Positions 1,143 through 41,199 of a stretch of DNA of 64,000 nucleotides are shown piece after piece. The notes beneath the pieces are model-generated. The model searched no databases and had not been told where the DNA came from. It worked only from the letters and a program-made list of their open reading frames with translations. The stretch is taken from assembly GCA_036501385.1 (NCBI GenBank), contig DASYAK010000009.1:37739-101738 (forward strand), read 5' to 3'. How positions within the stretch are numbered: position 1 is the stretch's first letter; each line of letters opens with the position of its first letter. This stretch comes from Gemmatimonadales bacterium. Its GTDB lineage: Bacteria; Gemmatimonadota; Gemmatimonadetes; Gemmatimonadales; GWC2-71-9. Made by a program: the position numbers and the translations under genes.

Positions 1143-1532
1143 ATGCGCCGCAGTCTGATGCCCCTCGTTCTCGCCGCGGCCCTGACCGTTGCGGGATGCC
1201 GTGACTACGATCGTTACGGGTACGTCTCCTCCGAGAAGGGGCTCATCTCCCCCGACGAATACGCCCGCTACGGTCCCGACCAGGCGATCGCCATGGCGAT
1301 CGGCCGCGAGTTCGGGAAGGCGTACGCGGGCCGGAGCGCGGCGGATTTCGGCAAGCAGGCGGACGCGGCGATTGCCTACTCCAAGAAGTACCCCCAGGTG
1401 GCGAATGTGGCATCCGATTCACTCGGCTACCGGCTCGTTGTCACCTTCGCCGACGGATGGGCAACTCAGGTGACGCCGATCACCGATGGCAAGAACGGCG
1501 ACCAGACGGCGAATCTGCCGAAGGGCAAATAG
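1143..1532 (+). CDS. Small lipoprotein of unknown function
   Basis: The signal peptide MRRSLMPLVLAAALTVAGC carries a lipobox. GGAG lies 9 nt upstream of the ATG at 1143, inside ORF 1125..1532. Confidence 0.7.
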   Translation: MRRSLMPLVLAAALTVAGCRDYDRYGYVSSEKGLISPDEYARYGPDQAIAMAIGREFGKAYAGRSAADFGKQADAAIAYSKKYPQVANVASDSLGYRLVVTFADGWATQVTPITDGKNGDQTANLPKGK

Positions 1533-1604
1533 CGCAACTGCACGAAGGACCGATCGACACTCACGCATTGCACGGCTGAAGCACCCAGCCGGAGGGACCG
1601 CGCC

Positions 1605-3035
1605 ATGACCACCAATACCTCCCCTCCGGACCTCACTCCCGAACTCCTCTATCTCCTGAGCGGCGACGCCGCCGATCTCGCCGAGGCGACCAGCGACCTC
1701 CGGGCCGCGGACATCGCCGAGGCGGTGAATCACCTCCCGGCCGAAGCGGCCGCCAAGGTGGTCGGCGCGCTCCCGTTCGCGCTCGCCGTGCAGATCTTCG
1801 ACGAGCCCGAACTCGAGCGGCGCGGCGAGATCTTCGAACAACTCCAGGTCCCCGTGGCGGGACCGCTGGTCGACGCCCTCTCCGCCGACCAGCAGGCCGA
1901 TCTTTACCGCGAGCTGACGCCGGAAGCGCGTTTGCGGCTGATGCCGTTCCTGCAGGCCGGGACGCGGGAAACGCTGCGCACGCTGATGAACTACCCGGCC
2001 ACGTCGGCGGGCGGGATCATGACGACCGAATTCGTCAGCGTGCCCTCGACGTGGACCGCCGACGAGGTCAAGCGCTACATCGCCGAGGTGGGCGAGGCGA
2101 AGGAAACGGTGTACGCGATCTACATCATCGATCCGGCGGAGAACACCCTGGCCCGGGTGATCTCGCTGCGCGAAGTGATGATGGTGCCGGGTGACACCAA
2201 TGTGCTCAAGATCGGCGACGACCGCCCGCCGATTTCGGTCGACCCGTTGATCGATCGTGAGGAGGCGGCGCGGCTCATCTCCAAGTACAACCTCCTCGCG
2301 CTACCGGTGGTCAACGATCACGACCGGATGCTCGGCATCGTCACGGTCGACGATATCATCGACGCGCTGGTGTCGGAGCAGACCGAGGACGTGCAGAAGC
2401 TCGGCGGCATGGAGGCGATCGACGAGCCGTACCTCCAGATCAGTTTCCTCGAAATGCTCAAGAAGCGCGCCGGGTGGCTGGCGATTCTCTTCGTGGGCGA
2501 GACGCTGACCGCGCAGGCGATGGGGCACTTCGAGGCGGAGATCGCGGCGGCGCCGGTGCTGGCACTCTTCATCCCGTTGATCATCTCGTCCGGCGGAAAT
2601 TCCGGATCGCAGTCGACGTCGCTGATCATCCGGGCGATGGCACTCAACGAGCTCACCTTGCGTGATTGGTGGCGGGCCCTGGTTCGCGACATTCCCACCG
2701 GATTCGCGCTGGGCGCGATGCTCGGCGCAATCGGCTTCTGCCGCATTCTCCTGTGGCAGTTTCTCTCGGCGCGCCATTATTCGCTGTTCGGGATGACGCT
2801 GGGACTCGATTACGGCAGGCATTACATGCTGGTGGCCGGCACCGTATTCTCGGCGCTGATCGGCGTGGTCCTCTTCGGGTCGGTGGCCGGGTCGATGCTC
2901 CCGTTCGTGCTGCGATGGTTCCGACTCGACCCCGCCAGCGCGTCGGCGCCGTTCGTGGCGACGCTGGTCGACGTGACCGGGCTGGTGATCTACTTCAGCG
3001 TGGCGTTCGCGATATTGCACGGGACACTGCTGTAG
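1605..3035 (+). CDS. mgtE: Magnesium transporter MgtE
   Basis: 476 aa with an N-terminal MgtE_N-like region, a CBS pair, and a C-terminal 5-TM channel domain carrying the PLIISSGGNSGSQS motif characteristic of MgtE. Confidence 0.9.
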   Translation: MTTNTSPPDLTPELLYLLSGDAADLAEATSDLRAADIAEAVNHLPAEAAAKVVGALPFALAVQIFDEPELERRGEIFEQLQVPVAGPLVDALSADQQADLYRELTPEARLRLMPFLQAGTRETLRTLMNYPATSAGGIMTTEFVSVPSTWTADEVKRYIAEVGEAKETVYAIYIIDPAENTLARVISLREVMMVPGDTNVLKIGDDRPPISVDPLIDREEAARLISKYNLLALPVVNDHDRMLGIVTVDDIIDALVSEQTEDVQKLGGMEAIDEPYLQISFLEMLKKRAGWLAILFVGETLTAQAMGHFEAEIAAAPVLALFIPLIISSGGNSGSQSTSLIIRAMALNELTLRDWWRALVRDIPTGFALGAMLGAIGFCRILLWQFLSARHYSLFGMTLGLDYGRHYMLVAGTVFSALIGVVLFGSVAGSMLPFVLRWFRLDPASASAPFVATLVDVTGLVIYFSVAFAILHGTLL

Positions 3036-3044
3036 CGCTTGCCT

Positions 3045-3113
3045 TCGCACCGCCGGCAGCCATTATAGTAATGATTACTATACCGTGAACGCAGATGGCT
3101 GGCGAAGGTGCGA
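3045..3113. terminator. Long imperfect hairpin in the convergent mgtE/kinase spacer, with a perfect AT-rich 19-bp palindrome (3064..3082) at its apex; probable bidirectional terminator
   Basis: TCGCACC (3045-3051) pairs with GGTGCGA (3107-3113). CAGCCAT (3057-3063) pairs with ATGGCTG (3095-3101). The inner element is TATAGTAAT-G-ATTACTATA. The structure lies between two converging stop codons (3035 and 3129). Confidence 0.5.
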
Positions 3114-3128
3114 GCCGCATTCCGGCCG

Positions 3129-5540
3129 CTAGCCGAGCCGCAGCTTCAGGCGCGCGGCACGGACGTCAAGCACTTCGCGAACTTTTCGGAGCAGCACCAT
3201 CGGCGTGTAGGGTTTCTGCAGAAAGATCGAATCGGCGCCGAGGATGCCGTGGTTGATCACCGCGTCACGAGCGTAACCCGACGCGAAGATGATCGCGATG
3301 TCAGGCCGGCTGGCGCGGAGACGGTCGGCCAGTTCAGGTCCCCCCACCAGCGGCATGATGACGTCGGTCACCAGCAGGTCGATACCATCCGCGTTGTTGG
3401 CAGCCAGTCGATATGCCTCCTCGCCGTTGGCCGCAACCAGCACCCGGTAGCCATGCCGCTCCAGCGCACCGGCGGCAAGCTGGCGGACCTCGGCCTCGTC
3501 TTCGACCACCAGAATCGTTTCGTGTCCGCCAGCCGCCGGCGTGGCGGATCGGTCGCCAGCATCGGGCTCAACCGGCTCACTTGTCACGGGGAAATAGAGC
3601 TTGAACGTCGTACCGGCGCCGGGTTCGCTGTAGACCCAGATGTGCCCGTTGCTCTGATTGACGATGCCATGGACCGCGGCGAGGCCCAGTCCGGTCCCCC
3701 GACCCACTTCCTTGGTTGTGAAGAACGGTTCGAAGATGCGTCGTTGAATCGCCTCGTTCATGCCGGTGCCAGTGTCCGTGATCGCGATCAGGACATACTC
3801 ACCGGGTTTCACCGCGGGTCGGCGCAGTGCGTAACTCGCATCAAGGTCGACATTGGCGGTCTCGATCGTGAGCGAACCGCCGCCCGGCATCGCGTCGCGC
3901 GCGTTGAGCGCCAGGTTGAGAATCACCTGCTCGAGCTGGCCTGGATCGACGTAGATGGGCCTGATGTCGCGTCCGAGCGACAAGGTGAGGCGGATATCCT
4001 CCCCGATCACGCGCCGTAGGAGCTTGCCGGTCCCTTCGACGACGCTGTTGGGATCGAGGACTCGAGGCTCCATCAGTTGCTGCCGACCGAAAGCCAGGAG
4101 TTGCCGCGTCAGCCGCGCCGCGCGCATCACGTTTCGGTCGATCTCCTCGAGCGACTCTGCGGCCGGGTGGTCGAGCGGAAGTACGGCCGACGCCGTTTCA
4201 GCGAAGCCGAGGATTGCTGTCAGGATGTTGTTGAAGTCGTGGGCGATCCCTCCGGCCAGGATGCCAATTGCTTCCATCTTCTGCGCTTGCTGGAACTGCT
4301 GCTCGAGATTTTTCCTCGACGTCACGTCGATCACGGCCGTGACGATCTCGACTGGACGGCCCGCGTAGTCGCGCACGACGGTGGGATGCGAGTTCATCCA
4401 GCGGTACGAACCATCGGCGTGACGTAGCCGGTATTCCAGCGAGACCGTCCGCCCCGAAAGGACATTCTCGAATTCATGCAGCGTGCGGTCCAGATCATCG
4501 GGGTGAATCTGCTTCTGCCACCAGCCGGGCCCCTGTACCTCTGCGACCGAGTAACCGAGCATTCGGGTGACGCCTTCGGTGACAAGGCTGAACACGGTCG
4601 GCGCCCGCGTCGGACTCTCGGGGGACAGTGGAACGGAAAGCAGCGTGGCCGCGCTCGATGCCAGGACATGCTCAAGTCTGGCGCGCGCCTCGTCGAGTTG
4701 CGTGTTCGATCGGCGCAGGTCGTCTTCGGCCTTCTTGCGGGCGCTGATGTCGACCACCGACGCAAGCACCAGCAGGCCGTCCGGCGTGGTGATCGGGTTC
4801 AGGCCGATTTCGACCGGCACCGCGCTCCCGTCCTTGTGCTCGCCAAAAAGGTCGCGCCCGACCCCCATGAACCGGCGGGCAGGGTGGGCGACAAATCCGG
4901 CTCGCAGGCCGGGATGGGCCGCGCGGCTCGGCGACGGAACCAGCCGTTCAACCGGCGAACCGATGAGTTCGTCGCGCGAATAGCCAAAGAGTCGCTCGAT
5001 CTCGCGGTTTACATACTGGATTCGTCCACCGGCATCCACGATCATCATCCCGTTTGGCGCCGCTTCGATCGCGAGCGTGAAGCGGGCCTCCAGCGACTTG
5101 CGACCGGTAATGTCGCGCGCGATTCCCGACGAACCGATCAATTCGCCGTCGTCAGAGCGGACCGGCGAAATCGTTAGCGACACGTCGATGTCGCGGCCAG
5201 CCTTGGTGCGCCGCACTGTTTCGACGCCGCTGACCGGAGCCCCCGCGCGCAATCGTTCGAGAATCTGCTGCAGTTCGGGGCGCTGTTGCTCCGGAACGAC
5301 CAATTCGATGTGACGGCCGATCGCTTCGACCGCGGTGTAGCCGTACATCCGTTCCGCGCCAGGATTCCAGGAGGTGATGATGCCGTCAAGAGTCTTGGTG
5401 TAGATCGCGTCGCTGGAAGACTCGATGATGGCGGAAAAGAGTCGCAGCCGCTCGGCGTCGCCGGATGGCGTCCGGCGCTCAGACATTCTCGTGACCAATG
5501 CTGGCGCACGAGGCCCGATGACGCCGCTCGCCGCCGACAA
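3129..5540 (-). CDS. Hybrid sensor histidine kinase (multiple PAS domains, HisKA, HATPase_c, C-terminal receiver)
   Basis: 803-aa ORF with repeated PAS-like segments. The H-box is GGIAHDFNNILTAI, and N/G boxes are present (DTGTGM, GTGLGL). The receiver is ILVVEDE...LLVTDVIMP. The start is uncertain: TTG at 5540 or ATG at 5486. Confidence 0.9.
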   Translation of the reverse strand: MSAASGVIGPRAPALVTRMSERRTPSGDAERLRLFSAIIESSSDAIYTKTLDGIITSWNPGAERMYGYTAVEAIGRHIELVVPEQQRPELQQILERLRAGAPVSGVETVRRTKAGRDIDVSLTISPVRSDDGELIGSSGIARDITGRKSLEARFTLAIEAAPNGMMIVDAGGRIQYVNREIERLFGYSRDELIGSPVERLVPSPSRAAHPGLRAGFVAHPARRFMGVGRDLFGEHKDGSAVPVEIGLNPITTPDGLLVLASVVDISARKKAEDDLRRSNTQLDEARARLEHVLASSAATLLSVPLSPESPTRAPTVFSLVTEGVTRMLGYSVAEVQGPGWWQKQIHPDDLDRTLHEFENVLSGRTVSLEYRLRHADGSYRWMNSHPTVVRDYAGRPVEIVTAVIDVTSRKNLEQQFQQAQKMEAIGILAGGIAHDFNNILTAILGFAETASAVLPLDHPAAESLEEIDRNVMRAARLTRQLLAFGRQQLMEPRVLDPNSVVEGTGKLLRRVIGEDIRLTLSLGRDIRPIYVDPGQLEQVILNLALNARDAMPGGGSLTIETANVDLDASYALRRPAVKPGEYVLIAITDTGTGMNEAIQRRIFEPFFTTKEVGRGTGLGLAAVHGIVNQSNGHIWVYSEPGAGTTFKLYFPVTSEPVEPDAGDRSATPAAGGHETILVVEDEAEVRQLAAGALERHGYRVLVAANGEEAYRLAANNADGIDLLVTDVIMPLVGGPELADRLRASRPDIAIIFASGYARDAVINHGILGADSIFLQKPYTPMVLLRKVREVLDVRAARLKLRLG

Positions 5541-5867
5541 ACGGGACGAGTTGGAATAACCCGATGCAAGTGCACCGGCAGTGAACCGTCAGGAGAATCG
5601 CCATAATCGACCGGGAAGGGCCGCCGACCGCGGCAGTGAAATTGTTTGCGGTATCCTATGGTACGGCGCGTGGCGCGAAACCGCAAATCATTGCGAATAT
5701 GACGATTGGATAACACATGCAAGCTGACCGCATTATGACATTACCATCATCAACGAGATGCAAGACTCAAGTTCGACAAGATTCCTTGATAAGTCCTGCA
5801 TCACAATTTCCGAACGGCACCGGCGGGGCTGAACAGGGCTGATGAGTCTTGCCACTAGATTTCCGGC

Positions 5868-6137
5868 ATGAAGCCCAAGCCGCTCATCACCGTCGCCGTG
5901 ATCCTGGCCTTCATCGCCTTCCTCGCCTGGTCCACCCTGTCGGCCCAGAAGGTGACCTGCAAGGTGTGCGTCGCCTACAACGGCAAAACCAACTGCGCCA
6001 CCGCATCACACGAGAACCAGGCCGAGGCCGCGAGGTCGGCCCAGACCACCGCGTGCGGGCCGGTTGCCCAGGGGATGAACGACGCCATCGCCTGCCAGCG
6101 CCGCGAGCCGGTTTCGCAGCAATGCCAGGCCACTTAG
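5868..6137 (+). CDS. Small membrane-anchored Cys-rich protein, unknown function
   Basis: 89 aa with an N-terminal TM/signal anchor (ITVAVILAFIAFLAW) and 6 Cys in the exported part. Third-position GC is high. No family recognised. Confidence 0.55.
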   Translation: MKPKPLITVAVILAFIAFLAWSTLSAQKVTCKVCVAYNGKTNCATASHENQAEAARSAQTTACGPVAQGMNDAIACQRREPVSQQCQAT

Positions 6138-6342
6138 CCGTAAGCCCTTGCAGGGTATTACTTTGGACGACCATTCCTGCACAGCGGCTCGGGCTCCACG
6201 ACTACCGGAACGCCACCGTCCCCACCATTGTTATATCGACTGCAAAGGGCCCGGAGTCCGGTCGGACCTCGAAGCGGCCGTGGCCCGGATCGTGAAGCAC
6301 GCGATCAGCGGCAGGAACCAGGGAAGGACAACCAGGAAGCTG

Positions 6343-7317
6343 ATGAGCCTGACAGACGCAGCACGACGGATGGCGCGGAAGGTCGAGGTCCTTCGCGACC
6401 TCGAAAACACCGTCCATGAGATGATGGTCGAACACGATCGCAAGCGCGAGCTCTGGTTTCCCAGCGAACTGCTGGCGCCGGCTCCCGGCGTCGACGCCGA
6501 CACGCATCTCAAGGCCTTGCGCGAACGCGTCGCCGGAATCCCCGATGCGTGCCGCGCGGCACTCGCCCTCAATACGCTGACCGAGGAAGGGCTGCCCCAT
6601 TTCCATCGCATCATCGCCGTGTATCTCGGCGAGGATTCGCACTGGCGCAACTGGAACAACCTCTGGACCGCCGAGGAAGACCGCCACGGGACCGTCCTGA
6701 GCGAATACATGCGCGACACCAATGTCGTCGATCAGCGCAAGATGGAGCAGCTCAAGTTCGAATACATCAAGGCGGGATTCAATCCGGAGTGGGACAAGGA
6801 TCCGTATCGCGTCTTCGTCTACACCACGCTGCAGGAGCGAGCCACCCAGTTCTCGCACGCCAACACCGGCCGCGTGATCGAAGAGTACGAGCCGCTCCTG
6901 GGCGGAATTCTCGCCAAGATCGCGATGGAAGAGGCGCGTCACTTCACCTTCTATCGCAAGGTCTTCACCGAGATCCTCAAGCGTGATCCGAGCGAAGCAC
7001 TCCGTTCGGCCGCGCAAGTCCTCCCGGCGATCGACATGCCCGGCGTCACGATCCCCGGGTTCAAGGAATTCGCCGACGTGATCCGGCGGTCGGGGATCTA
7101 CGGCCCCCGCGACTATCTGCGCATCGTGCAGGACCAGCTGGCGCACTGGAGAATCGAGGCGCTCGAAGGTCTCGACGAATGGGGCCGCAAGGCGCAGGAA
7201 CGGATGCTCGAAGTTCCCGAACGCCTCAAGCGGATCGCCGATCTCATGGAGACGCGTTCTCGCGCCAAGACTTTCGCGTTCGAGGTGGCATTCGCGCGCG
7301 AGTTCGTGATGGAGTAA
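6343..7317 (+). CDS. Soluble di-iron acyl-ACP desaturase family protein
   Basis: It carries the TAEEDRHG and MEEARHFTFY di-iron motifs and overall resembles plant/actinobacterial stearoyl-ACP (DesA-type) desaturases. The ATG at 6343, after a GGAAGG, was chosen over the upstream extension of ORF 6148..7317. Confidence 0.85.
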   Translation: MSLTDAARRMARKVEVLRDLENTVHEMMVEHDRKRELWFPSELLAPAPGVDADTHLKALRERVAGIPDACRAALALNTLTEEGLPHFHRIIAVYLGEDSHWRNWNNLWTAEEDRHGTVLSEYMRDTNVVDQRKMEQLKFEYIKAGFNPEWDKDPYRVFVYTTLQERATQFSHANTGRVIEEYEPLLGGILAKIAMEEARHFTFYRKVFTEILKRDPSEALRSAAQVLPAIDMPGVTIPGFKEFADVIRRSGIYGPRDYLRIVQDQLAHWRIEALEGLDEWGRKAQERMLEVPERLKRIADLMETRSRAKTFAFEVAFAREFVME

Positions 7318-7323
7318 GCGCGG

Positions 7324-7905
7324 TTGCCCGAAACATTGCTCGTCGATATCGTCGTGGGCGCCCGCATCGTTGTGGCGGGCGCCTTTGTGTTGTCCGCCAT
7401 CGTCGCCCTTACCCACTGGGCGGTGCGGCGCGGATCGGTCTCGGCTTTCGGTCGGTGGCCGCGCCTGGTCCGCCGGGCCAGTGATCCGGTCGTCGTTCCG
7501 CTCGAGCGCCGGCTGGTCCGCGCTGGCGCGAATCCGCAGGACGCGCCGATCTGGCTGGTCGGGGTCGTCGTCATTGCCGGGCTTGGCTTCATTGCGCTGG
7601 TCAACTGGCTCATCGGATTCCTGGTCACGGCGTACCAGAGCGTCGAGAGCGGTTTTCTCCTGGCGCTGCTGGTGCACTCGCTCTTCGAGATCCTGATGTT
7701 TGCGGTGATGATCCGGGTGATCGCGTCGTGGCTCGGCATCGGGCCGTACTCGAAGCCGATGCGGGTGGTCCACGCCCTCACGGACTGGCTGATCGACCCG
7801 CTGCAACGCGTCATTCCGCCGATCGGTATCTTCGATGTGACACCGATCGCCGCCTACTTTCTGCTATATTTGGCCGAGGGCGTGGTGATGCGAGGTCTCT
7901 TCTAG
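7324..7905 (+). CDS. YggT family membrane protein
   Basis: 193 aa with four to five TM segments. The C-terminal half, MIRVIASWL...DWLIDPLQRVIPPIGIFDVTPIAAY, matches the YGGT repeat. Start codon is TTG. Confidence 0.8.
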   Translation: MPETLLVDIVVGARIVVAGAFVLSAIVALTHWAVRRGSVSAFGRWPRLVRRASDPVVVPLERRLVRAGANPQDAPIWLVGVVVIAGLGFIALVNWLIGFLVTAYQSVESGFLLALLVHSLFEILMFAVMIRVIASWLGIGPYSKPMRVVHALTDWLIDPLQRVIPPIGIFDVTPIAAYFLLYLAEGVVMRGLF

Positions 7906-7967
7906 AGCCCGTGGCGATTTCCAGCGACTTGCGGCCACGAAAAACAATCCGCTAAGGCGATTCCAGC

Positions 7968-10900
7968 GTGATCGATCCCCGTCATCAGCGTACCGCGCGC
8001 CTCCGGCGATTGCCTTCCCTGCTGGCTGAACGCATCCTCCTCCTCGACGGCGCGATGGGGACGATGCTGCAGCGCGCCGGGCTGGTCGAGGCCGACTATC
8101 GCGGTGAGCGGTTCGCCGATTCCGCGCGCGACCTCAAGGGAAACCACGACCTTCTCTGCATCACCCGGCCGACGATCGTGGGCGATGTGCACGCCGCGTA
8201 TCTCCAGGCCGGCGCCGACATCATCGAAACCAACTCGTTCAACGCCACACGCATCTCGCAAGCCGAGTACGGGATGCAGGATGTGGTGCGCGACATCAAC
8301 GTTGCCGCAGCGCAGGTCGCGCGCGATGCCGCCGACGCATTCGAGACCGCGGATCGGCCGCGCTACGTCGCAGGCGTCCTCGGCCCGACGTCGGGAACGG
8401 CGTCGATTTCTCCTCGCGTCGACGATCCGGCGTTCCGCAACGTCTCCTTCGATCAACTCGCAGCGGCGTACCGGGAAGCCGCGCACGCGCTCGTCGACGG
8501 CGGTGCCGACATCCTCCTGATCGAGACGGTATTCGACACGCTCAATGCCAAGGCCGCGGTCTTCGGCGTCGAACAGCTCTTCGACGACCTGGGCTTTCGC
8601 GTTCCGGTGATGATTTCGGGGACAATCACCGATCGCAGCGGGCGGACGCTGTCGGGCCAGACCGCGGAAGCATTCTGGATTTCGCTGGCGCACGCGAAGC
8701 CGCTGTCGATCGGGCTCAACTGCGCGCTGGGGCCCGATCTTCTTCGCCAGTACGTGCAGGATCTGGCGCGCGTCGCCGATGTCGCGGTGAGTGCGCATCC
8801 CAACGCCGGCCTTCCCAACGCCCTCGGCGGATATGACCTCGATCCCGCCACGATGGCCGCGGAACTGGGCGAATGGGCGCGCTCGGAGCTGGTGAACATC
8901 GTGGGCGGCTGCTGCGGAACCACACCCGAGCACATCGCGGCGATTGCCGCAGCAGTGCGTGGTGTGAAGCCTCGCCATGTCGTCCTGAGCGACGCGAAGG
9001 GGCAGAGTGACGCGCGGCGCGGCTCCATCCCTTCGCCTGCGGCTCAGGGTGACACGTCGACCGCTCTCGCCGGCCTCGAACCGTTCCTCATCCGGCCCGA
9101 TTCGCTCTTCGTCAATGTCGGCGAGCGCACCAACGTGACCGGGTCGCGCCGCTTTGCGAAACTGATCCAGGAGCACCAGTACGAAGCCGGACTCGAGGTT
9201 GCACGGCAGCAGGTCGACGCCGGCGCACAGATGATCGACGTCAACTTCGACGAAGGGCTCCTCGACGGCGAAGCGGCGATGACGACCTTCCTTCGTCTCA
9301 TGGCATCGGACCCCGCGATCGCGCGCGTCCCGGTGATGGTCGATTCGTCGAAATGGAGCGTCCTCGAGGCCGGCCTCAAGTGTCTGCAGGGAAAAGGCGT
9401 GGTCAACTCGCTGTCGCTCAAGGAAGGCGAGGCGAAATTCCTGGAGCAGGCGCGCCTGGTGCGTCGGTACGGTGCCGCCGCGGTGGTGATGGCATTCGAC
9501 GAAAAGGGCCAGGCCGAAACCGTCGAGCAGCGCGTCAATATCATGGAGCGGGCGTACCGCCTCCTGGTCGACACGGTGGGATTCGCGCCCGGTGATGTGA
9601 TCCTCGACGCGAATGTTTTCGCGGTAGGAACCGGAATCGAAGCGCACGCCGAGTATGGCAACGCCTTCGTCGAGGCAGTGCGCCAGGCGAAGGTTCGCTG
9701 TCCCGGTGCGCTCACGAGCGGCGGAATCAGCAACGTGTCGTTTTCGTTCCGCGGCAACGACGCCGTGCGCGAGGCGATTCACGCGGTCTTCCTCGAACGC
9801 GCCATCGCCGCGGGACTCGACATGGGGATCGTCAACGCCGGACAGTTGCCGGTGATCGATGATCTCGATCCGGAACTCCGCGAACGGGTAGCCGATGTCC
9901 TCTGGAATCGTCGTCCCGACTCAACCGAACGCCTCCTCGAAGTGGCCGATCGCGCCAGGGGACTCGCGGCGGCCACGGCCGATCTTGCCTGGCGCAGTGG
10001 AACGGCGGAAGCGCGCCTTTCGCATGCGCTGGTGCACGGTATTGTCGAATTCATCGAGGCCGACACCGAGGAGGCGCGGCAGAACGCGGCGCGCCCGCTC
10101 GATGTGATCGAAGGGCCGCTGATGGCGGGCATGAACGTCGTGGGCGACCTGTTCGCGGCCGGGAAGATGTTTCTCCCGCAGGTGGTCAAGAGCGCTCGGG
10201 TGATGAAGCGAGCCGTCGCCTATCTGATCCCGTTCCTCGAGGCGCAGCGCGGCAGCGAACCCGTGCGCCGCAGCGGCCGGATCCTCATGGCGACCGTCAA
10301 GGGCGATGTCCACGACATCGGCAAGAACATCGTGGGCGTCGTGCTGCAGTGCAATGAATGGGAAGTGATTGATCTCGGCGTGATGGTACCGGCAGCCACG
10401 ATCATCGAAACCGCGCGCCGCGAGAAAGTTGACATGGTCGGACTATCCGGGCTGATCACGCCTTCCCTCGACGAGATGGCGTTCGTTGCATCGGAATTCG
10501 AGCGTGAACGGTTCGACCTCCCGATCCTGATCGGCGGGGCCACGACGTCGCGCACGCACACCGCGCTACGCATCGCGCCGGCGTACAGCGGCCCGGTGGT
10601 TCACGTGCTGGACGCGTCGCGCGCCGTTCCCGTGGCCAATTCGCTCCGGGACCCGGCGAAGCGACCAGCCTTCGCGTCGGCAGTGGCGGTGGAGTACGCC
10701 GGGATCCGCGCTGCGCGCGCCGGCGAGCACGAAGGCACGCTGATCACGATCGAGGCGGCGCGCGGCAATGCCTTCAAGATCGATCTCGCGCATGAACCTC
10801 CGGTGCCCGCGTTCACCGGAATACTCGACTTCGATCGCTGGCCGCTTGCCGACCTTCGGCGGCGCATTGACTGGACGCCATTTTTCCAGACGTGGGAGAT

Positions 10901-16407: not shown

Positions 16408-17439
16408 TCAGCAGCTTATGGCGCCATTCGCGACGGTGGCGAACGGCGAGCTTGGATAGTTGTAATAGAGATGCACCGTGCCTGATGTGGATGCGGTGAA
16501 GAATGTGTCGGTGTACCCGATCGAATCACTGGTCGAGCCAGCAGCCGTGACGCCGGTGGTGTCAGATGACGGCGTCACATCGTAGACGAGATGCGGTGAG
16601 GCGTAGAGACTGCTGCGAATCCGGAACTTGTTTCCGCACACGTACGTGAGAGTGATCCACGACGTGTCGACTAACGTGTGCAGCATGTAATCCGTGTTGG
16701 CCCGCAGCATGAAGTACGCGGCGTCATTGATCACCGACCCGCCACCATACGTGCGGGCCGAGTCGAGAATGGCGGAGTAGCCCAATACCGAGATACTTGA
16801 CGCGTGCGAATAGCCTTTGAGGAAATTGCACCAAGAGGAAGCGGCTGTAATCCATCCGAGATTGCACGCGCCGGTGGTCACGACCCAGAGGTGATTGTAG
16901 ATGTTGAGCATCGTCCGGGACGTGGGGAAGGTATCCACGCCGACGGTTTGAATGATCTTGCTGAGGTCGGCGTACGGGTCGAGCGACGGAGCGTTAGCTA
17001 CGGCGACCGAATCGTCTTCGTCGACAACGGGCAAGCTGTCACCATGATACCACGCGGTCGCGATGCCCGGCAGGCCAATTGCCTTGAGAGTGAGTGTAGG
17101 AGTTGAATCTCCGGCACCGATCCCGGCGAGTGCCACCCACGACGCTCCAGTGATTCCGCTAAATAGCTTGCGAATGACCCACACCGAATCCGGGCTTGGA
17201 ACCACAATCATCGTCGGTGTCATCGTCAGCTTGATCTTGAACGACACCAACCGTTCGAGACTCCCCACATCGCTCAGAAGCGAATATGATACGATGGTCG
17301 TGTCCTGCGACATTGTGACGACACGAACTCGCGCGGTCGCGGTGAGGTTCGTGCCGGGGAGCGATTGCGCTTCGGCCCATTGTGTGTCGAAGCTAAGGAG
17401 GGCAATGATGCCTGCGAATAGCCGAGTCAAAGTTTGCAT
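16408..17439 (-). CDS. Secreted protein of unknown function (second gene of the low-GC cassette)
   Basis: 343 aa. The signal peptide MQTLTRLFAGIIALLSFDTQWAEAQ has an AEA-Q cleavage-like site. The ATG overlaps the upstream gene by 13 nt. G+C is about 50%. No family recognised. Confidence 0.8.
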   Translation of the reverse strand: MQTLTRLFAGIIALLSFDTQWAEAQSLPGTNLTATARVRVVTMSQDTTIVSYSLLSDVGSLERLVSFKIKLTMTPTMIVVPSPDSVWVIRKLFSGITGASWVALAGIGAGDSTPTLTLKAIGLPGIATAWYHGDSLPVVDEDDSVAVANAPSLDPYADLSKIIQTVGVDTFPTSRTMLNIYNHLWVVTTGACNLGWITAASSWCNFLKGYSHASSISVLGYSAILDSARTYGGGSVINDAAYFMLRANTDYMLHTLVDTSWITLTYVCGNKFRIRSSLYASPHLVYDVTPSSDTTGVTAAGSTSDSIGYTDTFFTASTSGTVHLYYNYPSSPFATVANGAISC

Positions 17440-19253
17440 GTTATCCCCAGTTCCTTACTCTGCTGAAGATGCCAATGCTCCTGGGGGGCGGGTTCAGGAT
17501 GGACACATCCGTGCAACGAATCATTCCAGAAGTCAAACACCCAGTTTTTTTCCATATAGGTGAGCGCACCAGGCGCGCCGGCTTTAGTCCTGATATCCGC
17601 GCTCCGTCCAGCGCGGTGCTCCACGTGCCCGCCGCTCCAGAGCTTCGCGGTATCGTAGTCGAAGCGCCCGCCCCAGGGGAGGCTCATATCGTTCAGAGGG
17701 AGCGGTTTGCCATGGTGTGCCGCCGCGAACGATGAAGCAAGCGTCGAAAGCATCGTTTCCATCGAGTCCGTGGCATAGTGACTGTCGGCTGTGGGGTGGG
17801 CGATCGTTGGACCAATCCACAATATCGTGCTCGACGAATCAACTCGGTGAAGGCCATCTACGCCCACTGCCAGCCTGGCCAGGGCGGTGTCAGCCGACAG
17901 ATACGTCGCGCGGATTGTCTCAGGGGCCGAATACTGAGAGGACCGATAGGTGAAGGTCCCAATGGAGTCGCCAGTGCTCACAGTAGCGGGCACTGTCCCC
18001 CGCGGCTTGGCTGGCCCGCCACTGACCCCAAAGTGATGATGACCATAGGAGCCGTCTGATCCGGAACCGCCGCTATCGACCGGAATTACAACCAGCCCAA
18101 TTGTGCGATTCGACAACGGGTGTCCCGCAGAGTCAATCCTGATCCTGAACTGCATTGAATCCGGCCACGCGGCGCCGGAGTATGTCGGCTTGATGTCAGC
18201 CCTGGCGAATTCCTTGGGGAGAAGGAGTGGAATGCCGTTGTTCATCGGTGTTGAGGCCGTATCGAACGAAATCACGATTCGCGGCTTCAGCGTGATCACG
18301 ACGTCGTACGCCACATAGTCGCTGTGAGCTGGGTTCAGGACAAGCATATTGATCGAACCGGAAAACGAAGCAGAATCGGGGTGATTGACTCCCGCCGAGT
18401 CGCTGTATGCAAAGTCCGAAAAGGCGAAGGCGCCGGACGAATCGTACGCGGTCGCGGTGTTGCCCACGAACGTCGGATCCTCTATCAGGATGTTCGCCGC
18501 TTGAATCGGCTTCGAAAAGGTGATGGCGATCAACCTCGAGGCACTGGTACCGCTATCACTCTGGAATTCTTCCGCGGACCAGGTACTTGGCGTGTAGAAC
18601 GGTGTGACCGCCCAGTCAACCGAGCCGCAAGTCCCGGTCGCGGCCGTGATCTCGCACACGGATGAATCGCCGCACGATCCACCTGAACAGAGTCGCGCGC
18701 GAGTCGCGAGAGCTGCCCGGTGCCAGGGTGTCGAGGCATGAGTCACCGAACCACCGGTGACCTGCTGAATCAGGCGGACATCGGCAGCCGGACGCCGGAG
18801 GGTGCCACGTCGTACGGAATACTTCACCCCGACCGATTGAGCGGTGGCAAATGAAAACACGTCGATGCTGGCAGGTAGCGTCTTGAGCGGGTACTCCTCG
18901 CTCGTGCCATCGACGTCGATCACGAGGGCGGCTGATGCGTCCGCTCCAGAAAGTTCGCCATTTGCGTTGATCGCGAGCGCGATCTGGTCGCCAGCGTGCC
19001 CGCTAACCTGAAACTCCGCAAGCCGGAGCAGTGCGCTGACGGAATCCTTGGCGCCGCCGGTTGCGGCGAGTGGAGTGGCGTTGTCGATGATCACACAGTC
19101 GGCGGAACAGAGGATGTTCCCGCCGGGAGTTGGAGCAGTGACTGGCCGATTGTTGACCAAGTCGGGGTCGGTCCAACACCCAACCACGCCGACAACTGCA
19201 CAAAGAACCACCCCGCACAGAAGCGCCGATCCGGCGCCGTTGCTCCATCGCAT
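17427..19253 (-). CDS. Lipoprotein with a C-terminal MepA/LAS-type zinc metallopeptidase signature (first gene of the low-GC cassette)
   Basis: 608 aa with a lipobox (VVGVVGC) and GGAGG 6 nt upstream of the ATG. The C-terminus reads LNDMSLPWGGRF...GGHVEHRAGRSADI...QEHWHL, which fits the H-x(6)-D plus H-x-H zinc ligand pattern of LAS peptidases. The N-terminal 500 aa are unrecognised. Confidence 0.85.
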   Translation of the reverse strand: MRWSNGAGSALLCGVVLCAVVGVVGCWTDPDLVNNRPVTAPTPGGNILCSADCVIIDNATPLAATGGAKDSVSALLRLAEFQVSGHAGDQIALAINANGELSGADASAALVIDVDGTSEEYPLKTLPASIDVFSFATAQSVGVKYSVRRGTLRRPAADVRLIQQVTGGSVTHASTPWHRAALATRARLCSGGSCGDSSVCEITAATGTCGSVDWAVTPFYTPSTWSAEEFQSDSGTSASRLIAITFSKPIQAANILIEDPTFVGNTATAYDSSGAFAFSDFAYSDSAGVNHPDSASFSGSINMLVLNPAHSDYVAYDVVITLKPRIVISFDTASTPMNNGIPLLLPKEFARADIKPTYSGAAWPDSMQFRIRIDSAGHPLSNRTIGLVVIPVDSGGSGSDGSYGHHHFGVSGGPAKPRGTVPATVSTGDSIGTFTYRSSQYSAPETIRATYLSADTALARLAVGVDGLHRVDSSSTILWIGPTIAHPTADSHYATDSMETMLSTLASSFAAAHHGKPLPLNDMSLPWGGRFDYDTAKLWSGGHVEHRAGRSADIRTKAGAPGALTYMEKNWVFDFWNDSLHGCVHPEPAPQEHWHLQQSKELGITCKL

Positions 19254-19362
19254 GCGCTACCTCCACATGTCGCGTGATTGCCGGGCAGCCCGTCTAACAC
19301 GGCGAGTGCCAGCGACCAAAGCTTCCGCCACGTGAACCCACCGCGCAATTGCTCAACCGGAC

Positions 19363-19382
19363 GATCACCCGATCGGGTGATC
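19363..19382. promoter_or_regulatory. Perfect 20-bp palindrome GATCACCCGATCGGGTGATC (three GATC sites); candidate operator or hairpin between the LuxR-type gene and the cassette
   Basis: It is exactly self-complementary and overlaps a second 12-bp palindrome, GGGTGATCACCC (19375..19386). It lies 8 nt after the LuxR-type stop and about 110 nt upstream of the lipoprotein ATG. No U-tract follows. Confidence 0.5.
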
Positions 19383-19389
19383 ACCCAAG

Positions 19390-19686
19390 TCAGTCAGGAT
19401 CACGTGTGCTCCAGAGGTTCCGCGCGATCTCCGAGAAGAGCACGCCCAGTTCGACGCGGCCGCCAAGCCCGACCCGTTTGTAGGTCTGATGGAGCAAGGA
19501 TCGAACGTTGTCGACAGAGCACCCCAGCTCGCGCGCGATTTCTGAGTTCTTGCAGCCCAGCGACACGTGTTCGGCGATCCGTCGCTTCTGCGGCGACGTC
19601 GCGAGCAATACGCGCAGACGACCAGCCTTTGCCTCATGAACTGCGGCACGATCGGCATCCAGAGGTACCACACGGGAGTGCGACAT
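19390..19686 (-). CDS. Minimal LuxR/GerE-family HTH transcriptional regulator (no receiver or ligand domain)
   Basis: The C-terminal 60 aa, [50 protein letters not shown], match the GerE HTH. The ATG at 19686 is preceded by AGGAG. A longer ATG-initiated frame (to 19863) runs through the pentanucleotide repeat. Confidence 0.8.
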
Positions 19687-19737
19687 CTTCGCTCCTGGCA
19701 GCGTGGCGGCCGGTGTACCAACTGATCCTCGTCGCGC

Positions 19738-19807
19738 GCGTGGCGTGGCGTGGCGTGGCGTGGCGTGGCGTGGCGTGGCGTGGCGTGGCGTGGCGTGGCG
19801 TGGCGTG
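19738..19807. repeat. Perfect pentanucleotide microsatellite (GCGTG)14
   Basis: 14 uninterrupted copies (70 bp), read directly from the sequence. It lies in the 252-bp divergent spacer between the LuxR-type gene (start 19686) and the Ser/Thr kinase gene (start 19939). Confidence 0.97.
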
Positions 19808-19938
19808 TGAGCATAGCCCACGGTTCGCGTTCCTGTCAACCGACGCTTCTGCCAGTAACTCATTCGTCACAACCAGCCCGGCGCCGTAGTCCCGTCCTCG
19901 ACCCGAGTCCCCCCACCCCATGCTATTCTATACGTCGC

Positions 19939-21858
19939 ATGAGCAACGCCGACCACCCCGACGACCTCTTCCTCGCCCTCCAGGAAGCGCTCGCCGGTCG
20001 CTACTCGCTCGAACGCGAGATCGGCCGCGGCGGAATGGGAATCGTCTATCTAGCCCGTGACGTCCGGCTCGACCGGCCCGTAGCGCTCAAGCTCCTCCCG
20101 CCCGAACGCGCCGCACGCCAGGATCTTCGCCAGCGCTTTCTCGATGAAGCCCGGATGGCCGCGCGACTGGCCCACCCCAACATCGTGCCGATTCACGCCG
20201 TCGAGGAAGCCGGGCCGTTCGTCTTCTACGCCATGCGCTATGTCGAGGGCGAAACGCTCGGCGAGCGGCTCCGGCGCGTGGGGAATCTCGGTCACCCCGC
20301 GACGATCCGGATCCTGCGCGACACCGCCTATGCGCTCGCGTACGCGCATGCGCAGCACGTGATTCACCGCGACATCAAGCCCGACAACATCCTCCTCGAA
20401 GCGGGTAGCGACCGCGCCGTGGTAACCGACTTCGGTATCGCCCGTCTGATGGGACAGGGCGACGATCTCCGTCACCCCGTGGTGGGAACGCCGGAATACG
20501 TGGCACCCGAACAGGCTGCGGGGCTCGAAGTCGACGGCCGCAGTGATCTCTACGCCCTCGGCGCCGTGGGATATCACTGCATCGTCGGCCGTCCGCCGTT
20601 CGAGGGCGACGTGCAGCAGTTGCTGGCGCAGCATCTCTCGCGCCGCGCCACGCCGTTGCTCGAGGCCGCGCCGGGCACGCCATCGATCTTCGCCACCGCC
20701 ATCGATCGCGCGCTGGAAAAGGATCCGCCGCTTCGCTTCGACACCGCCGAGGCGTTCGCCGAAGCGCTCGGCGCGTCGCTCAGCACCAGCGGCGATCTCC
20801 CGGTGCCGGTGCGCGTCTGGGTGGAGCGAGGGCGCGAACTCAAGGGGATCTACGTCATCTGGTCGTGCTTCTTCTACGGCATCGGTACGATGGCACTGGT
20901 TGGCGCGCTGCTCAACAGCAGCTGGCCGTGGCAGGCTGTGGTCTTCATGGGACTGTGCGCGGCATCGAGCGTCGCGCCCTGGATTGCGCATGGACTCTGG
21001 CGGCTGAGCGAAACGCGCAAGGCGATCGAGGCCGGGGCCACGCTCGACGATCTCCGCCACGGTGCGCTCGTGGCGCTCGAACGCCGCGAGGAAGAGCTGC
21101 GCTACGAGGCGTCGCGCGCGGTGCATCCGCTGGCGCGCCTGATCCGGATTCTGACCTACGGTGCCTTTGTCGCGGCGATCGGTGCGCTCATTGGCGGCGT
21201 GTTCATCAGCACGGGCGGCCGGATGTCACGGGAGTTCTTCGCGATCTTCGGCGCGTTCACGATGGCGACCGTTGGCGGCGCGCTCTTCGGGCTGGTCTTC
21301 CCGGGCCGGCGCGTCGGCATTCGCGATCATTTCGCGCGGCTGCGCCTCTGGTTCTGGAACTCGCCGCTGGGAGATCTTACCGGCCAGCTCGCGTCATTCG
21401 GCCTCAAACGCCAGGTCGTGCGGCGATGGACCGGATCGCGAAAGACCGAGACCGCGCTGGGCGACATCACGGCGACGCTCTTCGCCGCCCTTCCCCAGGC
21501 CGACCGCGCCACCCTGGCCGATCTTCCCGATGTTGTCGCGCGGCTCGAGGACGCCGCCGCTCGCGCCAGGAGTCACCTCGCCCACGGTGACGATCCGGCA
21601 TGGGCCGAGCGCTTGCAACGCGCCGTTGCGGCGATCGAGACGCTGCGCCTGGGCCTGCTGCGGATGACCACCGATCGCGCCGCGGCAACTTCGCTCAGCA
21701 CCGACCTCGACGCCGCGCGTGATCTCTCCGAACGGATCGGCTATCTGATCGAAGGAGCGGCGGAAGTCTCCGACTGGCTCGCCGGATCGGACGGTGGCGA
21801 CCAGAGGCGCACCCACGCGACACCAAGACAGAGGGCGGCGAGCACGTCACTCGGGTAG
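19939..21858 (+). CDS. Membrane Ser/Thr protein kinase (Hanks-type) with a 4-TM and helical C-terminal region
   Basis: Kinase motifs are GRGGMGIVYLA, VALK, HRDIKPDNILL, DFG and APE. They are followed by four hydrophobic helices and a roughly 180-aa Ala/Arg/Leu-rich tail. The ATG at 19939 was chosen; the upstream part of ORF 19750.. is repeat-derived. Confidence 0.9.
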   Translation: MSNADHPDDLFLALQEALAGRYSLEREIGRGGMGIVYLARDVRLDRPVALKLLPPERAARQDLRQRFLDEARMAARLAHPNIVPIHAVEEAGPFVFYAMRYVEGETLGERLRRVGNLGHPATIRILRDTAYALAYAHAQHVIHRDIKPDNILLEAGSDRAVVTDFGIARLMGQGDDLRHPVVGTPEYVAPEQAAGLEVDGRSDLYALGAVGYHCIVGRPPFEGDVQQLLAQHLSRRATPLLEAAPGTPSIFATAIDRALEKDPPLRFDTAEAFAEALGASLSTSGDLPVPVRVWVERGRELKGIYVIWSCFFYGIGTMALVGALLNSSWPWQAVVFMGLCAASSVAPWIAHGLWRLSETRKAIEAGATLDDLRHGALVALERREEELRYEASRAVHPLARLIRILTYGAFVAAIGALIGGVFISTGGRMSREFFAIFGAFTMATVGGALFGLVFPGRRVGIRDHFARLRLWFWNSPLGDLTGQLASFGLKRQVVRRWTGSRKTETALGDITATLFAALPQADRATLADLPDVVARLEDAAARARSHLAHGDDPAWAERLQRAVAAIETLRLGLLRMTTDRAAATSLSTDLDAARDLSERIGYLIEGAAEVSDWLAGSDGGDQRRTHATPRQRAASTSLG

Positions 21859-40548: not shown

Positions 40549-41199
40549 TCATCGATTCAGGAACCGCACGGCAGTGGTGTCGCGTGATCCCTTGCGACCA
40601 CGCGGCACGGCGCTGTCGGGCCGGGTTGCCGTCGTGTCGCGCCCGGCGGTAGTGGTGTCGTGGATTCCCTTGCGAAGCCGCGGCGCAGTGGTGTCGGCAC
40701 GCGCAGCGGTCGTGTCGACCGGGTCACCGTACTGGCGCGCCAGCACGCCCACTGCGACGAGAACGCGCCCGGCAGCCTTGTTGGTCGCCGGGACCTGGCG
40801 CTCGAGTTCTCGCGGCGACCGCGACGGATCGGCGGTCGGGAGGTACACCGTCTCAGCGGTAATGTTGGAGTAGTTGGGGCGCGACGGATCAACCCAGATG
40901 CGGATCTTGACGACGTCGGGGCCGAGGTGGCGCCGCGTCGTTGGCCGCATCGTGGTGGCGTCGAGCCATTCCGATTCGAGCCAGCCGTCCTTGACCATCG
41001 TGCGACGAATCGGAATCGAATCCTGATCGAGGAGCAGCGCGATCGCCTGGGTCGCCTCCCGAACGTCGAGTTTGACTTCGGTGACCGGGGCGTTGGGAAG
41101 CGGCACGAACGCTGGGCGCGTCGTCGTGGGAAAGCACGCTGCCATCGCGACCGCGGCGAGCGGCCACATTCGAAACGGCGGTCGTACCACGTCGGTCAT
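40549..41199 (-). CDS. Lipoprotein-like protein with a repetitive C-terminal tail (RKGxxDTT repeats)
   Basis: The ATG at 41199 overlaps the upstream stop (ATGA). The signal-like segment is MWPLAAVAMAACFP. The C-terminal 60 aa contain repeated DTTA/RKG motifs, encoded by imperfect tandem DNA repeats at 40570..40740. Confidence 0.7.
   Translation of the reverse strand: MTDVVRPPFRMWPLAAVAMAACFPTTTRPAFVPLPNAPVTEVKLDVREATQAIALLLDQDSIPIRRTMVKDGWLESEWLDATTMRPTTRRHLGPDVVKIRIWVDPSRPNYSNITAETVYLPTADPSRSPRELERQVPATNKAAGRVLVAVGVLARQYGDPVDTTAARADTTAPRLRKGIHDTTTAGRDTTATRPDSAVPRGRKGSRDTTAVRFLNR

Follow-up and report, generated by a model that had tools for sequence, protein, structure and literature searches.

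The stretch analyzed here, termed the window, comprises 64,000 nucleotides (nt) of a soil Gemmatimonadales genome (contig DASYAK010000009.1, positions 37,739 to 101,738), and it contains a perfect pentanucleotide array at positions 19738-19807 that reads (CACGC)14 in the sense of a minus-strand gene for a small helix-turn-helix (HTH) regulator and (GCGTG)14 on the plus strand. Comparison with related genomes points to a recurrent class of Gemmatimonadales loci in which a putative promoter, a C-rich pentamer array, a leader and an HTH-regulator gene follow one another. An initial annotation, made from the sequence of the window alone, had proposed that the repeat is a contingency locus, and this idea is supported in that the arrays form a recurrent and evolutionarily dynamic class. 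What stands of it is a multi-locus set of arrays upstream of genes for regulators, lipoproteins and secreted proteins, whereas the re-phasing of promoters, an alternative protein isoform and the coupling to a divergent kinase gene, which were part of the same proposal, are not supported. We think that the array may be a hypermutable transcribed leader repeat that tunes the small regulator together with its lipoprotein and secreted-protein cargo, and we give this reading an even chance.

The array and its predicted promoter

Direct reading and Tandem Repeats Finder agree that the repeat is as perfect as it was first described, with a period of 5, 14.0 copies, 100% matches, no indels and a score of 140. 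The same program detected no second array with at least five copies of a unit of up to 10 nt in the 64 kb, which bears out the claim that nothing comparable occurs there; an impure GGCGGG repeat of 4.7 copies at 53025 alone comes close. A perfect pentamer array of 70 nt cannot have originated by chance. The distances to the flanking genes had likewise been given correctly, with 51 nt between the array and the ATG of the HTH gene at 19686 and 131 nt to the ATG of the divergent kinase gene at 19939, and the low-GC gene cassette next to the array is real, since the GC content is 0.59-0.61 in the 16-19 kb stretch compared with 0.64-0.69 in its surroundings.

As the neighbor upstream of the HTH gene is divergent, this gene requires its own promoter within the interval. 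A consensus scan of positions 19200-20100 revealed a single promoter-like site, which is of the sigma-70 type, lies on the minus strand at 19810-19839 (-35 TTGACA at 19839-19834, 18-nt spacer, -10 TATGCT at 19815-19810) and stops 2 nt short of the array. It matches the consensus in 10 of 12 positions, and 0.2 such sites are expected in shuffled sequences. Transcription is predicted to start within the first repeat unit at about 19806-19803. The non-repeat part of the leader (19687-19737, minus strand) consists of 51 nt and carries the Shine-Dalgarno sequence AGGAG (19696-19692) 5 nt before the ATG; the consensus scan found no promoter-like site in these 51 nt. Because the only promoter-like site precedes the array and none lies downstream of it, the array is predicted to be transcribed leader and not promoter spacer, and the mRNA is predicted to begin with (CACGC)14 as the first ~70 nt of its leader.

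Recurrence in Gemmatimonadales genomes

An exact scan for (GCGTG)6, carried out on one genome per species (GTDB), yielded at least 120 places. Eight of the 120 listed are from four metagenome-assembled genomes (MAGs) of Gemmatimonadales or Gemmatimonadaceae, and one further array place, below the scan threshold, was reached via a protein homologue. Among the matches listed and in the homologue search, nine (CACGC)n arrays were thus found in five Gemmatimonadales-type genomes, the window included. These genomes can carry several arrays, as at least four are present in the 3.33-Mb sequence OY970263.1 (loci L128, L108, L096 and L032 with 6.4, 9.0, 13.8 and 9.8 copies) and two in CAVWJI010000006.1 (L130 with 8.4 and L099 with 13.6 copies), and one lies in the 64-kb window. 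The others are in CAWCMH010000001.1 (L082, 14.0 copies) and in the Gemmatimonadaceae MAG JBGTOG010000159.1 (L103, 9.2 copies). L032 is syntenic with window positions 1269-8542 at 72-78% identity, which identifies the array-bearing genomes as relatives of the window's organism.

In all nine Gemmatimonad arrays found, CACGC reads in the sense of the downstream gene, and this gene encodes an HTH regulator in 8 of the 9 cases, or in 5 of 6 independent locus groups. Small GerE-type HTH proteins are encoded behind the arrays of the window, L128 and L130, a receiver-plus-HTH protein is encoded behind that of L082, and L108, L099, L096 and L032 encode proteins of ~225 amino acids (aa) that start with MTVCCLLPG or MKVFCLMPG and possess a C-terminal HTH. 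Lipoproteins or secreted proteins are encoded downstream of the arrays of the window and its relatives; homology between the downstream cargo genes of the window and those of L128 and L130 was looked for, and none was found.

Most Gemmatimonad arrays begin 2-8 nt past a -10-like hexamer. In L096 as well as in L099 and L108, TTGACA and a 17-nt spacer are followed by TAGCGT and TACCGT, respectively, 3 nt before the array, and L032 has TTGACG, 17 nt and TACCAT at the same distance. The sites of L130 (TTGCGC, 17 nt, TACGTT, 7 nt before the array) and L128 (TTCCGC, 17 nt, TACGTT, 6 nt before the array) are of the same layout, and L082 has TTGACA with a poor match to the -10 hexamer. The order of promoter and then array is seen in L032, L096, L099 and L108 and in L140, which is described below, and more weakly in L128, L130 and L082. 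A strict pattern, defined by at least four of six matches to TTGACA, a spacer of 16-19 nt and a TAnnnT whose end precedes the array by 0-12 nt, is present at 4 of 7 Gemmatimonad scan loci, the window site having been identified in the separate consensus scan. The same pattern occurs at 0.9% of 4800 random positions in these loci and, in the C-rich sense, at 2 of 109 non-Gemmatimonad arrays among the matches listed.

At L103, the array (positions 3390-3435, (CACGC)9.2) lies in frame within an open reading frame (ORF) of 533 aa, ..RPERQC(HATPR)3SILTATLLSIALAAC, where it falls into the n-region of a signal peptide of the lipoprotein type. Start codons are available only ahead of the array, and none was found between the array and the lipobox, so that L103 is a candidate for an opa-like frameshift switch.

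Some further features of these loci deserve mention. A comM/yifB-like gene is represented by its 3' end (..GPQHVGEAIQYRVLDRG) at L096:2350-2470 and L108:4550-4640, which are 168 kb apart in OY970263.1, and at L099:2150-2220. Each of the two copies in OY970263.1 is followed by promoter, array, HTH gene and a gene for a secreted Cys-rich protein of ~100 aa. The comM-like part of L096 looks truncated, and these loci are possibly integrated elements by which the comM 3' end was duplicated. In L099:2446-3118, the gene of the MTVCCLLPG family is split over two frames, which may reflect a pseudogene or a homopolymer error in this long-read MAG. A block of ~70 nt upstream of the arrays of L128 and L130 (7700-7770), downstream of ribonucleotide-reductase genes, shows 100% conservation across the two species. 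The palindrome TTGGACCACTGTCCAA is part of it, as is a GC-rich hairpin (GAAGGGGG..CCCCCTTC), and the block may represent a terminator plus operator.

Copy-number change

The view that the tract is a simple sequence repeat (SSR) of a type that is prone to copy-number change is supported by orthologous loci, which differ by whole units, and by plasmids. A comparison of copy number in related MAGs, as had been suggested for the window, gave 6.4 versus 8.4 copies for L128 and L130, which are orthologous loci with common neighbors, flanks that are 91% identical by column and an equal array position. It gave 9.0 pure units (10.0 at 97% according to Tandem Repeats Finder) versus 13.6 for L108 and L099, which are orthologous and possess an identical promoter. 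The arrays of the orthologues are pure despite a divergence of ~10-14% in their flanks, a pattern that ongoing slippage and turnover produce.

A (GCGTG)n tract on Enterobacter IncFIB/IncFII plasmids served as a direct test of the mutability of this unit. On these near-identical plasmids, with identical flanks, 11.6, 18.6, 19.6, 20.6, 21.6, 22.2 and 32.2 copies are found; the length of the locus changes in steps of 5 bp, stepwise for example from 18.6 to 21.6 copies, and two records labelled as isolate 732 differ by one unit. This tract (L073, L111, L119 and L132-L137) is situated in the plasmid leading region near antirestriction and DUF1380 genes, 3 nt past TTGTGA-17-TACGGT, and overlapping small ORFs annotated as hypothetical proteins change their length with the copy number.

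With 14 perfect units, the window array is itself a pure tract that is long enough for hypermutability, as in SSR contingency loci. Further strains of the window locus were sought in two ways: an exact scan of metagenome contigs with the left flank gave no matches, and of 62 pattern matches from a scan guided by the HTH protein alignment, none was confirmed as a further strain of the locus.

How tract length might be read

The proposed sequence of events is as follows. Transcription would start at the sigma-70-type promoter 2 nt upstream of the array, as judged from the consensus match and from recurrence, and the mRNA would begin with (CACGC)14. Replication slippage, which is shown for the sister loci and the plasmids, would probably also add or remove 5-nt units in the window. 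The length of the tract would then determine the amount of regulator and, through it, that of the adjacent surface and secreted proteins, by analogy with the hmw and uspA2 systems discussed below. Such a change of expression would be graded rather than on/off, and it would act after initiation.

Two ways of sensing the length can be envisaged. We prefer a mechanism like that of the hmw hairpin, in which base pairing of the C-rich repeats with the more G-rich leader downstream would alter either the processing of the RNA or the access of ribosomes. Array RNA alone is predicted to be nearly unstructured with negligible intra-array pairing, and the predicted pairing of array and leader rises with copy number to ~21 bp in the window, where it saturates at 12 or more units, and to ~32 bp in L140. 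The predicted unpaired probability from the Shine-Dalgarno sequence to the AUG decreases in the window from 0.60 to 0.46 with rising copy number. A strong RNA switch was considered and rejected for the window, as copy number barely alters the predicted accessibility of the ribosome site. As second choice, the untranslated, C-rich and G-poor 70 nt may act as a length-dependent Rho loading (rut-like) site. On its own strand, no other 78-nt stretch of the window is as C-rich and G-poor as the array (C/G 2.9, which exceeds the 99.9th percentile), and in its composition, the only aspect compared here, this untranslated and predictedly unstructured stretch of ~70 nt resembles a rut site.

A bolder version of this proposal extends to whole genomes of Gemmatimonadales and perhaps of further lineages from soil. 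CACGC and TCGCC arrays at the transcription starts of HTH-regulator genes, and occasionally in lipoprotein signal peptides, would be stochastic dials that act as length-dependent elements after initiation, either as Rho loading site or as one arm of a processed hairpin, and slippage would diversify soil populations. We consider this version rather unlikely.

Homologues of the regulator and of the lipoprotein

Word-indexed searches with the HTH protein of the window retrieved only the protein itself and two relatives. The homologues P0005 (L130) and P0006 (L128) have 93 aa and are 35-37% identical to the window protein; P0005 matches Pfam GerE with E=8e-8. A HMMER profile search of 1.84 billion cluster representatives gave 9635 GerE-type representatives, of which only two, the family itself, had E<=1e-30, and those beyond the family are generic GerE domains. 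Five further small solo HTH homologues were examined (P0015, P0022, P0018, P0038 and P0109). P0015, encoded at L138, is 51% identical to the window protein and is followed by a homologue of its neighbor, a 608-aa lipoprotein, with 42% identity. L138 thus has the same cassette as the window, and the pairing of HTH protein and lipoprotein is conserved as judged from these sequences. P0022, encoded at L140 (1316-1503; 139.6-kb contig of JGI assembly 3300037258), has the arrangement TTGACA-18-TAACAT-catt-(TCGCC)10 with a perfect array, followed by a G-rich leader of 99 nt. Its TCGCC unit differs by one base from the ACGCC rotation of the window unit. A pure C-rich pentamer array is therefore located at the predicted start site in 4 of 8 members of the small family, which speaks against a chance origin and also against a site that a protein recognizes by its sequence.

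For the 608-aa lipoprotein, only two distant homologues were found. No array was detected on contig L004, which carries one of them, and the contig of the other, L005, has 26 nt upstream, too short to judge. L004 (Gemmatimonadales GCA_050732975.1) encodes a partial homologue and contains three arrays of 9-nt repeats with the related units GAGAGCGAG and CGCTCTCCT at 261-303, 589-673 and 3336-3397, which lie in or beside a gene for a protein that resembles an extracytoplasmic function (ECF) sigma factor.

The CACGC unit in other bacteria

The matches listed have 6-30 copies and are mostly from high-GC Actinomycetes, Burkholderiales, Myxococcota, Alphaproteobacteria and Planctomycetes. The idea that such arrays sit within coding regions was rejected, as an array deep inside a coding-like ORF was seen at none of 80 evaluable high-GC loci among these matches. 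A general association of (GCGTG)n with LuxR-type genes was also rejected, since Pfam analysis of 48 and 51 flanking ORFs from all taxa gave heterogeneous families. The link between array and regulator is specific to the Gemmatimonad loci. The bare sequence is a sporadic intergenic microsatellite of GC-rich genomes, but in Gemmatimonadales it is not sporadic. Nine of the matches (L033, L034, L041, L054, L055, L063, L069, L074 and L123) are from MAG CBDHHR01, which is labelled Metamycoplasmataceae; they are on contigs of 42-52% GC with up to ~109 copies of GCGTG, which is unlike a mycoplasma genome and suggests a contamination of this bin by host or eukaryotic DNA.

Weighing the explanations

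Several observations speak against a tuning function of the leader repeat. The putative promoter of the window is recognized by its consensus match and its recurrence, and the four loci of the MTVCCLLPG type are paralogues or orthologues and not independent observations. The predicted RNA effects in the window are modest, and G makes up 37% of its leader, compared with 43-50% in the leaders of the sister loci, which are thus richer in G. Both full assemblies of the window locus have 14 copies, and they are possibly from one sample. L138, the homologous cassette that is most similar to that of the window, lacks an array in its upstream 239 nt, which shows that an array is dispensable for the cassette, and none was found at L139, L141 and L142 with the homologues P0018, P0038 and P0109. 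Finally, arrays of the CACGC unit adjoin unrelated genes in more than 100 other species, so that such tracts can exist without a special role.

The last point leads to the main rival, a neutral microsatellite, in which a CACGC-like seed near the transcription start would have expanded in an insertion-tolerant leader and would vary in length without any regulatory consequence. Arrays of (GCGTG)n with n of at least 6 adjoin unrelated genes at 120 or more places across numerous high-GC taxa, which fits this explanation, and L138 has only a single CACGC, 2 nt past a TTGACC-17-AACTGT site, at the place that corresponds to that of the array. The small predicted effect on ribosome-site accessibility and the negative result of an Rfam search of 19200-20100 at a permissive threshold point in the same direction. 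However, a neutral origin does not readily explain why the position relative to the -10 hexamer recurs in at least five non-orthologous loci, compared with 0.9% by chance, why the sense orientation is uniform in 9 of 9 arrays, and why HTH regulators are downstream in 5 of 6 independent locus groups. It is also at odds with the purity that is kept in orthologues with diverged flanks, and with the different C-rich unit at the equivalent place of L140. We therefore regard a neutral microsatellite as doubtful, although it is the explanation that competes most seriously with a tuning leader repeat.

Alternatively, the pentamers could be an array of operators that bind the encoded HTH protein or another factor, so that the copies are sites and the array acts as a roadblock from +1 to +70. 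The arrays do accompany genes for DNA-binding proteins, the position is suitable for a roadblock, and two units correspond to 10 bp, that is, to one helical turn. Yet one unit would have to serve three different HTH families, a close family member carries TCGCC instead, and the array of L103 is inside the coding region of a lipoprotein signal peptide. The binding sites of GerE-type proteins are typically palindromes, and a better candidate of this kind is available in the window, as a perfect 12-bp palindrome, GGGTGATCACCC, is located at 19375-19386 (minus strand), with the direct half-copy GGGTGATC after GATC at 19363-19370 between the HTH and lipoprotein genes. This block of 19363-19386 comes just after the HTH stop codon, with the lipoprotein gene starting ~120 nt further on, and the palindrome may be an operator of the HTH protein. 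An operator function of the pentamers hence appears improbable.

The initial annotation had favored a re-spacing of -35 or activator sites in the divergent promoters of the HTH and kinase genes, and in addition the toggling of a long N-terminally extended isoform from an ATG at 19863. The array is indeed in a divergent intergenic region, and both statements about ORFs are literally true, as the ORF 19863-19390 (minus strand) shares the frame of the HTH gene and traverses the array, while the ORF 19750-21858 (plus strand) is open from within it. The relative L103 even has an in-frame array within an ORF. However, the putative core promoter of the HTH gene is wholly upstream of the array with none in the leader, and the same order is found in ~7 other loci; the likely -10 of the kinase gene (19924-19929) is more than 110 nt away from the array, and no sister locus has a divergent partner gene. 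As regards the isoform, the ATG at 19863 is upstream of the -35 hexamer, and both gene callers start the HTH gene at 19686, where a Shine-Dalgarno sequence is present. From the array to this start, all three frames are free of stop codons, and a pentamer array encodes one peptide, HATPR, in every frame; short GC-rich leaders are stop-free in all frames, and an open frame through the array is therefore uninformative. The long isoform appears to be incidental, and we attach little credence to either variant.

Even less is attached to a role of non-B DNA, according to which the G-rich template strand (GGCGT)n would form two-tetrad G-quadruplexes that impede transcription or replication, so that structure and not length variation would matter. 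The GG runs are separated by 3-nt loops and the G-rich strand is always the template, but the G-rich strand of L140, GGCGA, likewise has GG runs only, and two-tetrad quadruplexes are weak.

An assembly artefact can practically be dismissed: k-mer-based short-read assemblers perform poorly on repeats, and a Logan contig (k=31) ends 30 nt inside the window array, three Logan contigs (L002, L129 and L131) stopping in arrays, but an identical array of 14 copies is present in the independent JGI assembly 3300036780 (11.7-kb contig), and the agreement of separate assemblies shows that the array is not the product of one assembler; furthermore, 70 nt is below the largest k-mers in common use and long-read MAGs carry arrays of like kind. 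All three assemblies of the window locus are possibly from one sample and are silent on length variation. As a practical warning, such tracts break k-mer assemblies.

Genes next to the array

The tuning leader repeat that we favor would act on the gene at 19390-19686 (minus strand), which encodes a small LuxR/GerE-type HTH regulator of 98 aa. Its Pfam matches are marginal (Sigma70_r4_2 with 27.6 bits at a cut-off of 25.7, and GerE with 24.2 bits at a cut-off of 23.5). Pfam did not detect any receiver, autoinducer-binding or ligand-binding domain, and the HTH is present alone; the protein is a solo HTH regulator and not a quorum-sensing LuxR.

Downstream, on the same strand, follows a predicted lipoprotein of 608 aa (17427-19253, N-terminus MRWSNGAGSALLCGVVLCAVVGVVGC, GGAGG 7 nt before the ATG) and then a predicted secreted protein of 343 aa (16408-17439) with a signal peptide ending in ..QWAEA/QS. 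Neither has a Pfam match, and their genes overlap by 13 nt. A terminator-like match at 19225-19209 lies inside the coding sequence of the lipoprotein signal peptide and is taken as a false positive.

The divergent gene at 19939-21858 (plus strand) encodes a Ser/Thr protein kinase of 639 aa (Pfam Pkinase, E=1.7e-42). On its 5' side, TATTCT at 19924-19929 is only 9 nt before the ATG without a Shine-Dalgarno sequence, which suggests a very short or absent mRNA leader, and the kinase mRNA is possibly leaderless. The 5' region of this gene, at 19895-19981, is the most C-rich and G-poor 78 nt of the plus strand (C/G 3.2). An involvement of the kinase, as had been proposed, is not borne out by the related array loci: a divergent kinase was found at none of them, and the upstream neighbors are co-directional ribonucleotide reductase, comM-like or rsmA-like genes. 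From this comparison, the kinase appears to be incidental and outside the recurrent architecture.

Elsewhere in the window, at 40569-40717 and 45247-45391, there are a 78-nt tandem duplication (1.9 copies, 76% matches) and a block of 12/24/36-nt repeats with the unit TGGCGACCTTCT and its relatives; the block is probably the coding sequence, on the minus strand, of a repeat protein rich in Lys and Ala.

Comparison with known repeat-controlled systems

Contingency loci that are driven by repeats count as a hallmark of pathogens adapted to a host, for instance Haemophilus, Neisseria, Campylobacter and Moraxella. Here, one C-rich pentamer is found repeatedly where the transcripts of regulator genes are predicted to begin, in the genomes of several uncultured Gemmatimonadales from soil, and a genome can have several such loci. 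If these tracts modulate expression, mutational bet-hedging would extend to a major and poorly understood soil phylum, and regulators instead of surface genes would be the direct target. The tracts would then also provide a natural series of leader lengths for studying the mRNA 5' end with respect to Rho loading or RNA processing. The initial statement that contingency loci have not been described for high-GC environmental lineages can be maintained in part. SSR variation is documented in the high-GC species Burkholderia mallei (PMC1574311), and intergenic repeats are known from environmental Beggiatoaceae and Cyanobacteria (PMC4679880), but for Gemmatimonadota we found no report of phase variation or SSR-mediated variation in the literature, nor any report of the (GCGTG)n repeat itself.

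The closest parallel is hmw1A/hmw2A of Haemophilus influenzae, where a heptanucleotide repeat (ATCTTTC)n is transcribed in the 5' untranslated region and pairs with a G-rich arm; RNase III processing results, and expression is graded and inversely related to the repeat number (PMC12721329). As in hmw, the window repeat is located between promoter and start codon in the predicted leader, and its predicted pairing with the leader grows with the copy number. The window differs in that its unit is a C-rich 5-mer and not an AT-rich 7-mer, in that the array starts at ~+1, and in that a regulator in a soil Gemmatimonadales MAG is controlled and not an adhesin; its predicted hairpin is also weak. In Moraxella catarrhalis, an (AGAT)n tract of uspA2 and a poly-G tract of uspA1 are upstream of the ORF, and the expression of uspA2 is graded (PMC7302503). 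The window shares with uspA2 the position upstream of the ORF and a similar copy number (13-18), and graded mRNA tuning is the feature of uspA2 that is relevant here, whereas unit, organism and gene class differ.

The Neisseria opa genes contain (CTCTT)n pentanucleotide repeats in the region coding for the signal peptide (PMC13183285). A pentanucleotide unit is common to both systems, and the (CACGC)9.2 array of L103 in a lipoprotein signal-peptide region is the opa arrangement, but in the window the array is outside the called ORF, 51 nt before its start, and a frameshift on/off switch is not expected. The array is also not situated between promoter elements, as both hexamers are upstream of it according to their consensus matches, and it is in this respect unlike the TA repeats of H. 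influenzae hif and the repeats of N. meningitidis porA and nadA.

Intergenic TAACTGA direct repeats are abundant heptamers in Beggiatoaceae, Cyanobacteria and Bacteroidetes, for which a post-transcriptional role is suspected (PMC4679880). They resemble the Gemmatimonad arrays in that one short unit occurs just upstream of genes at many loci per genome in environmental lineages. The TAACTGA sets mostly have 2-6 copies, lie a few nt from the start codon and concern all gene classes, whereas the Gemmatimonad arrays have 6-14 copies, lie at the predicted transcription start and mostly have regulators downstream. With rut sites, the window array shares its length of ~70 nt, its C-rich and G-poor composition, and its untranslated and predictedly unstructured nature. 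Natural rut sites are not perfect tandem repeats.

Finally, the placement of the tract on a regulator is reminiscent of phasevarions, in which repeats control regulators such as the mod methyltransferases (PMC2667262, PMC1976455). In both cases a hypermutable tract acts, or would act, on a regulator, so that one tract could switch a set of genes. The mod repeat is inside the ORF of a DNA methyltransferase, and the window repeat is in the predicted leader of an HTH transcription factor. If the arrays were indeed genome-wide dials, a phasevarion-like bet-hedging would exist outside of host-adapted pathogens, and it would continuously diversify the regulatory states of soil populations together with their surface and secreted proteins.

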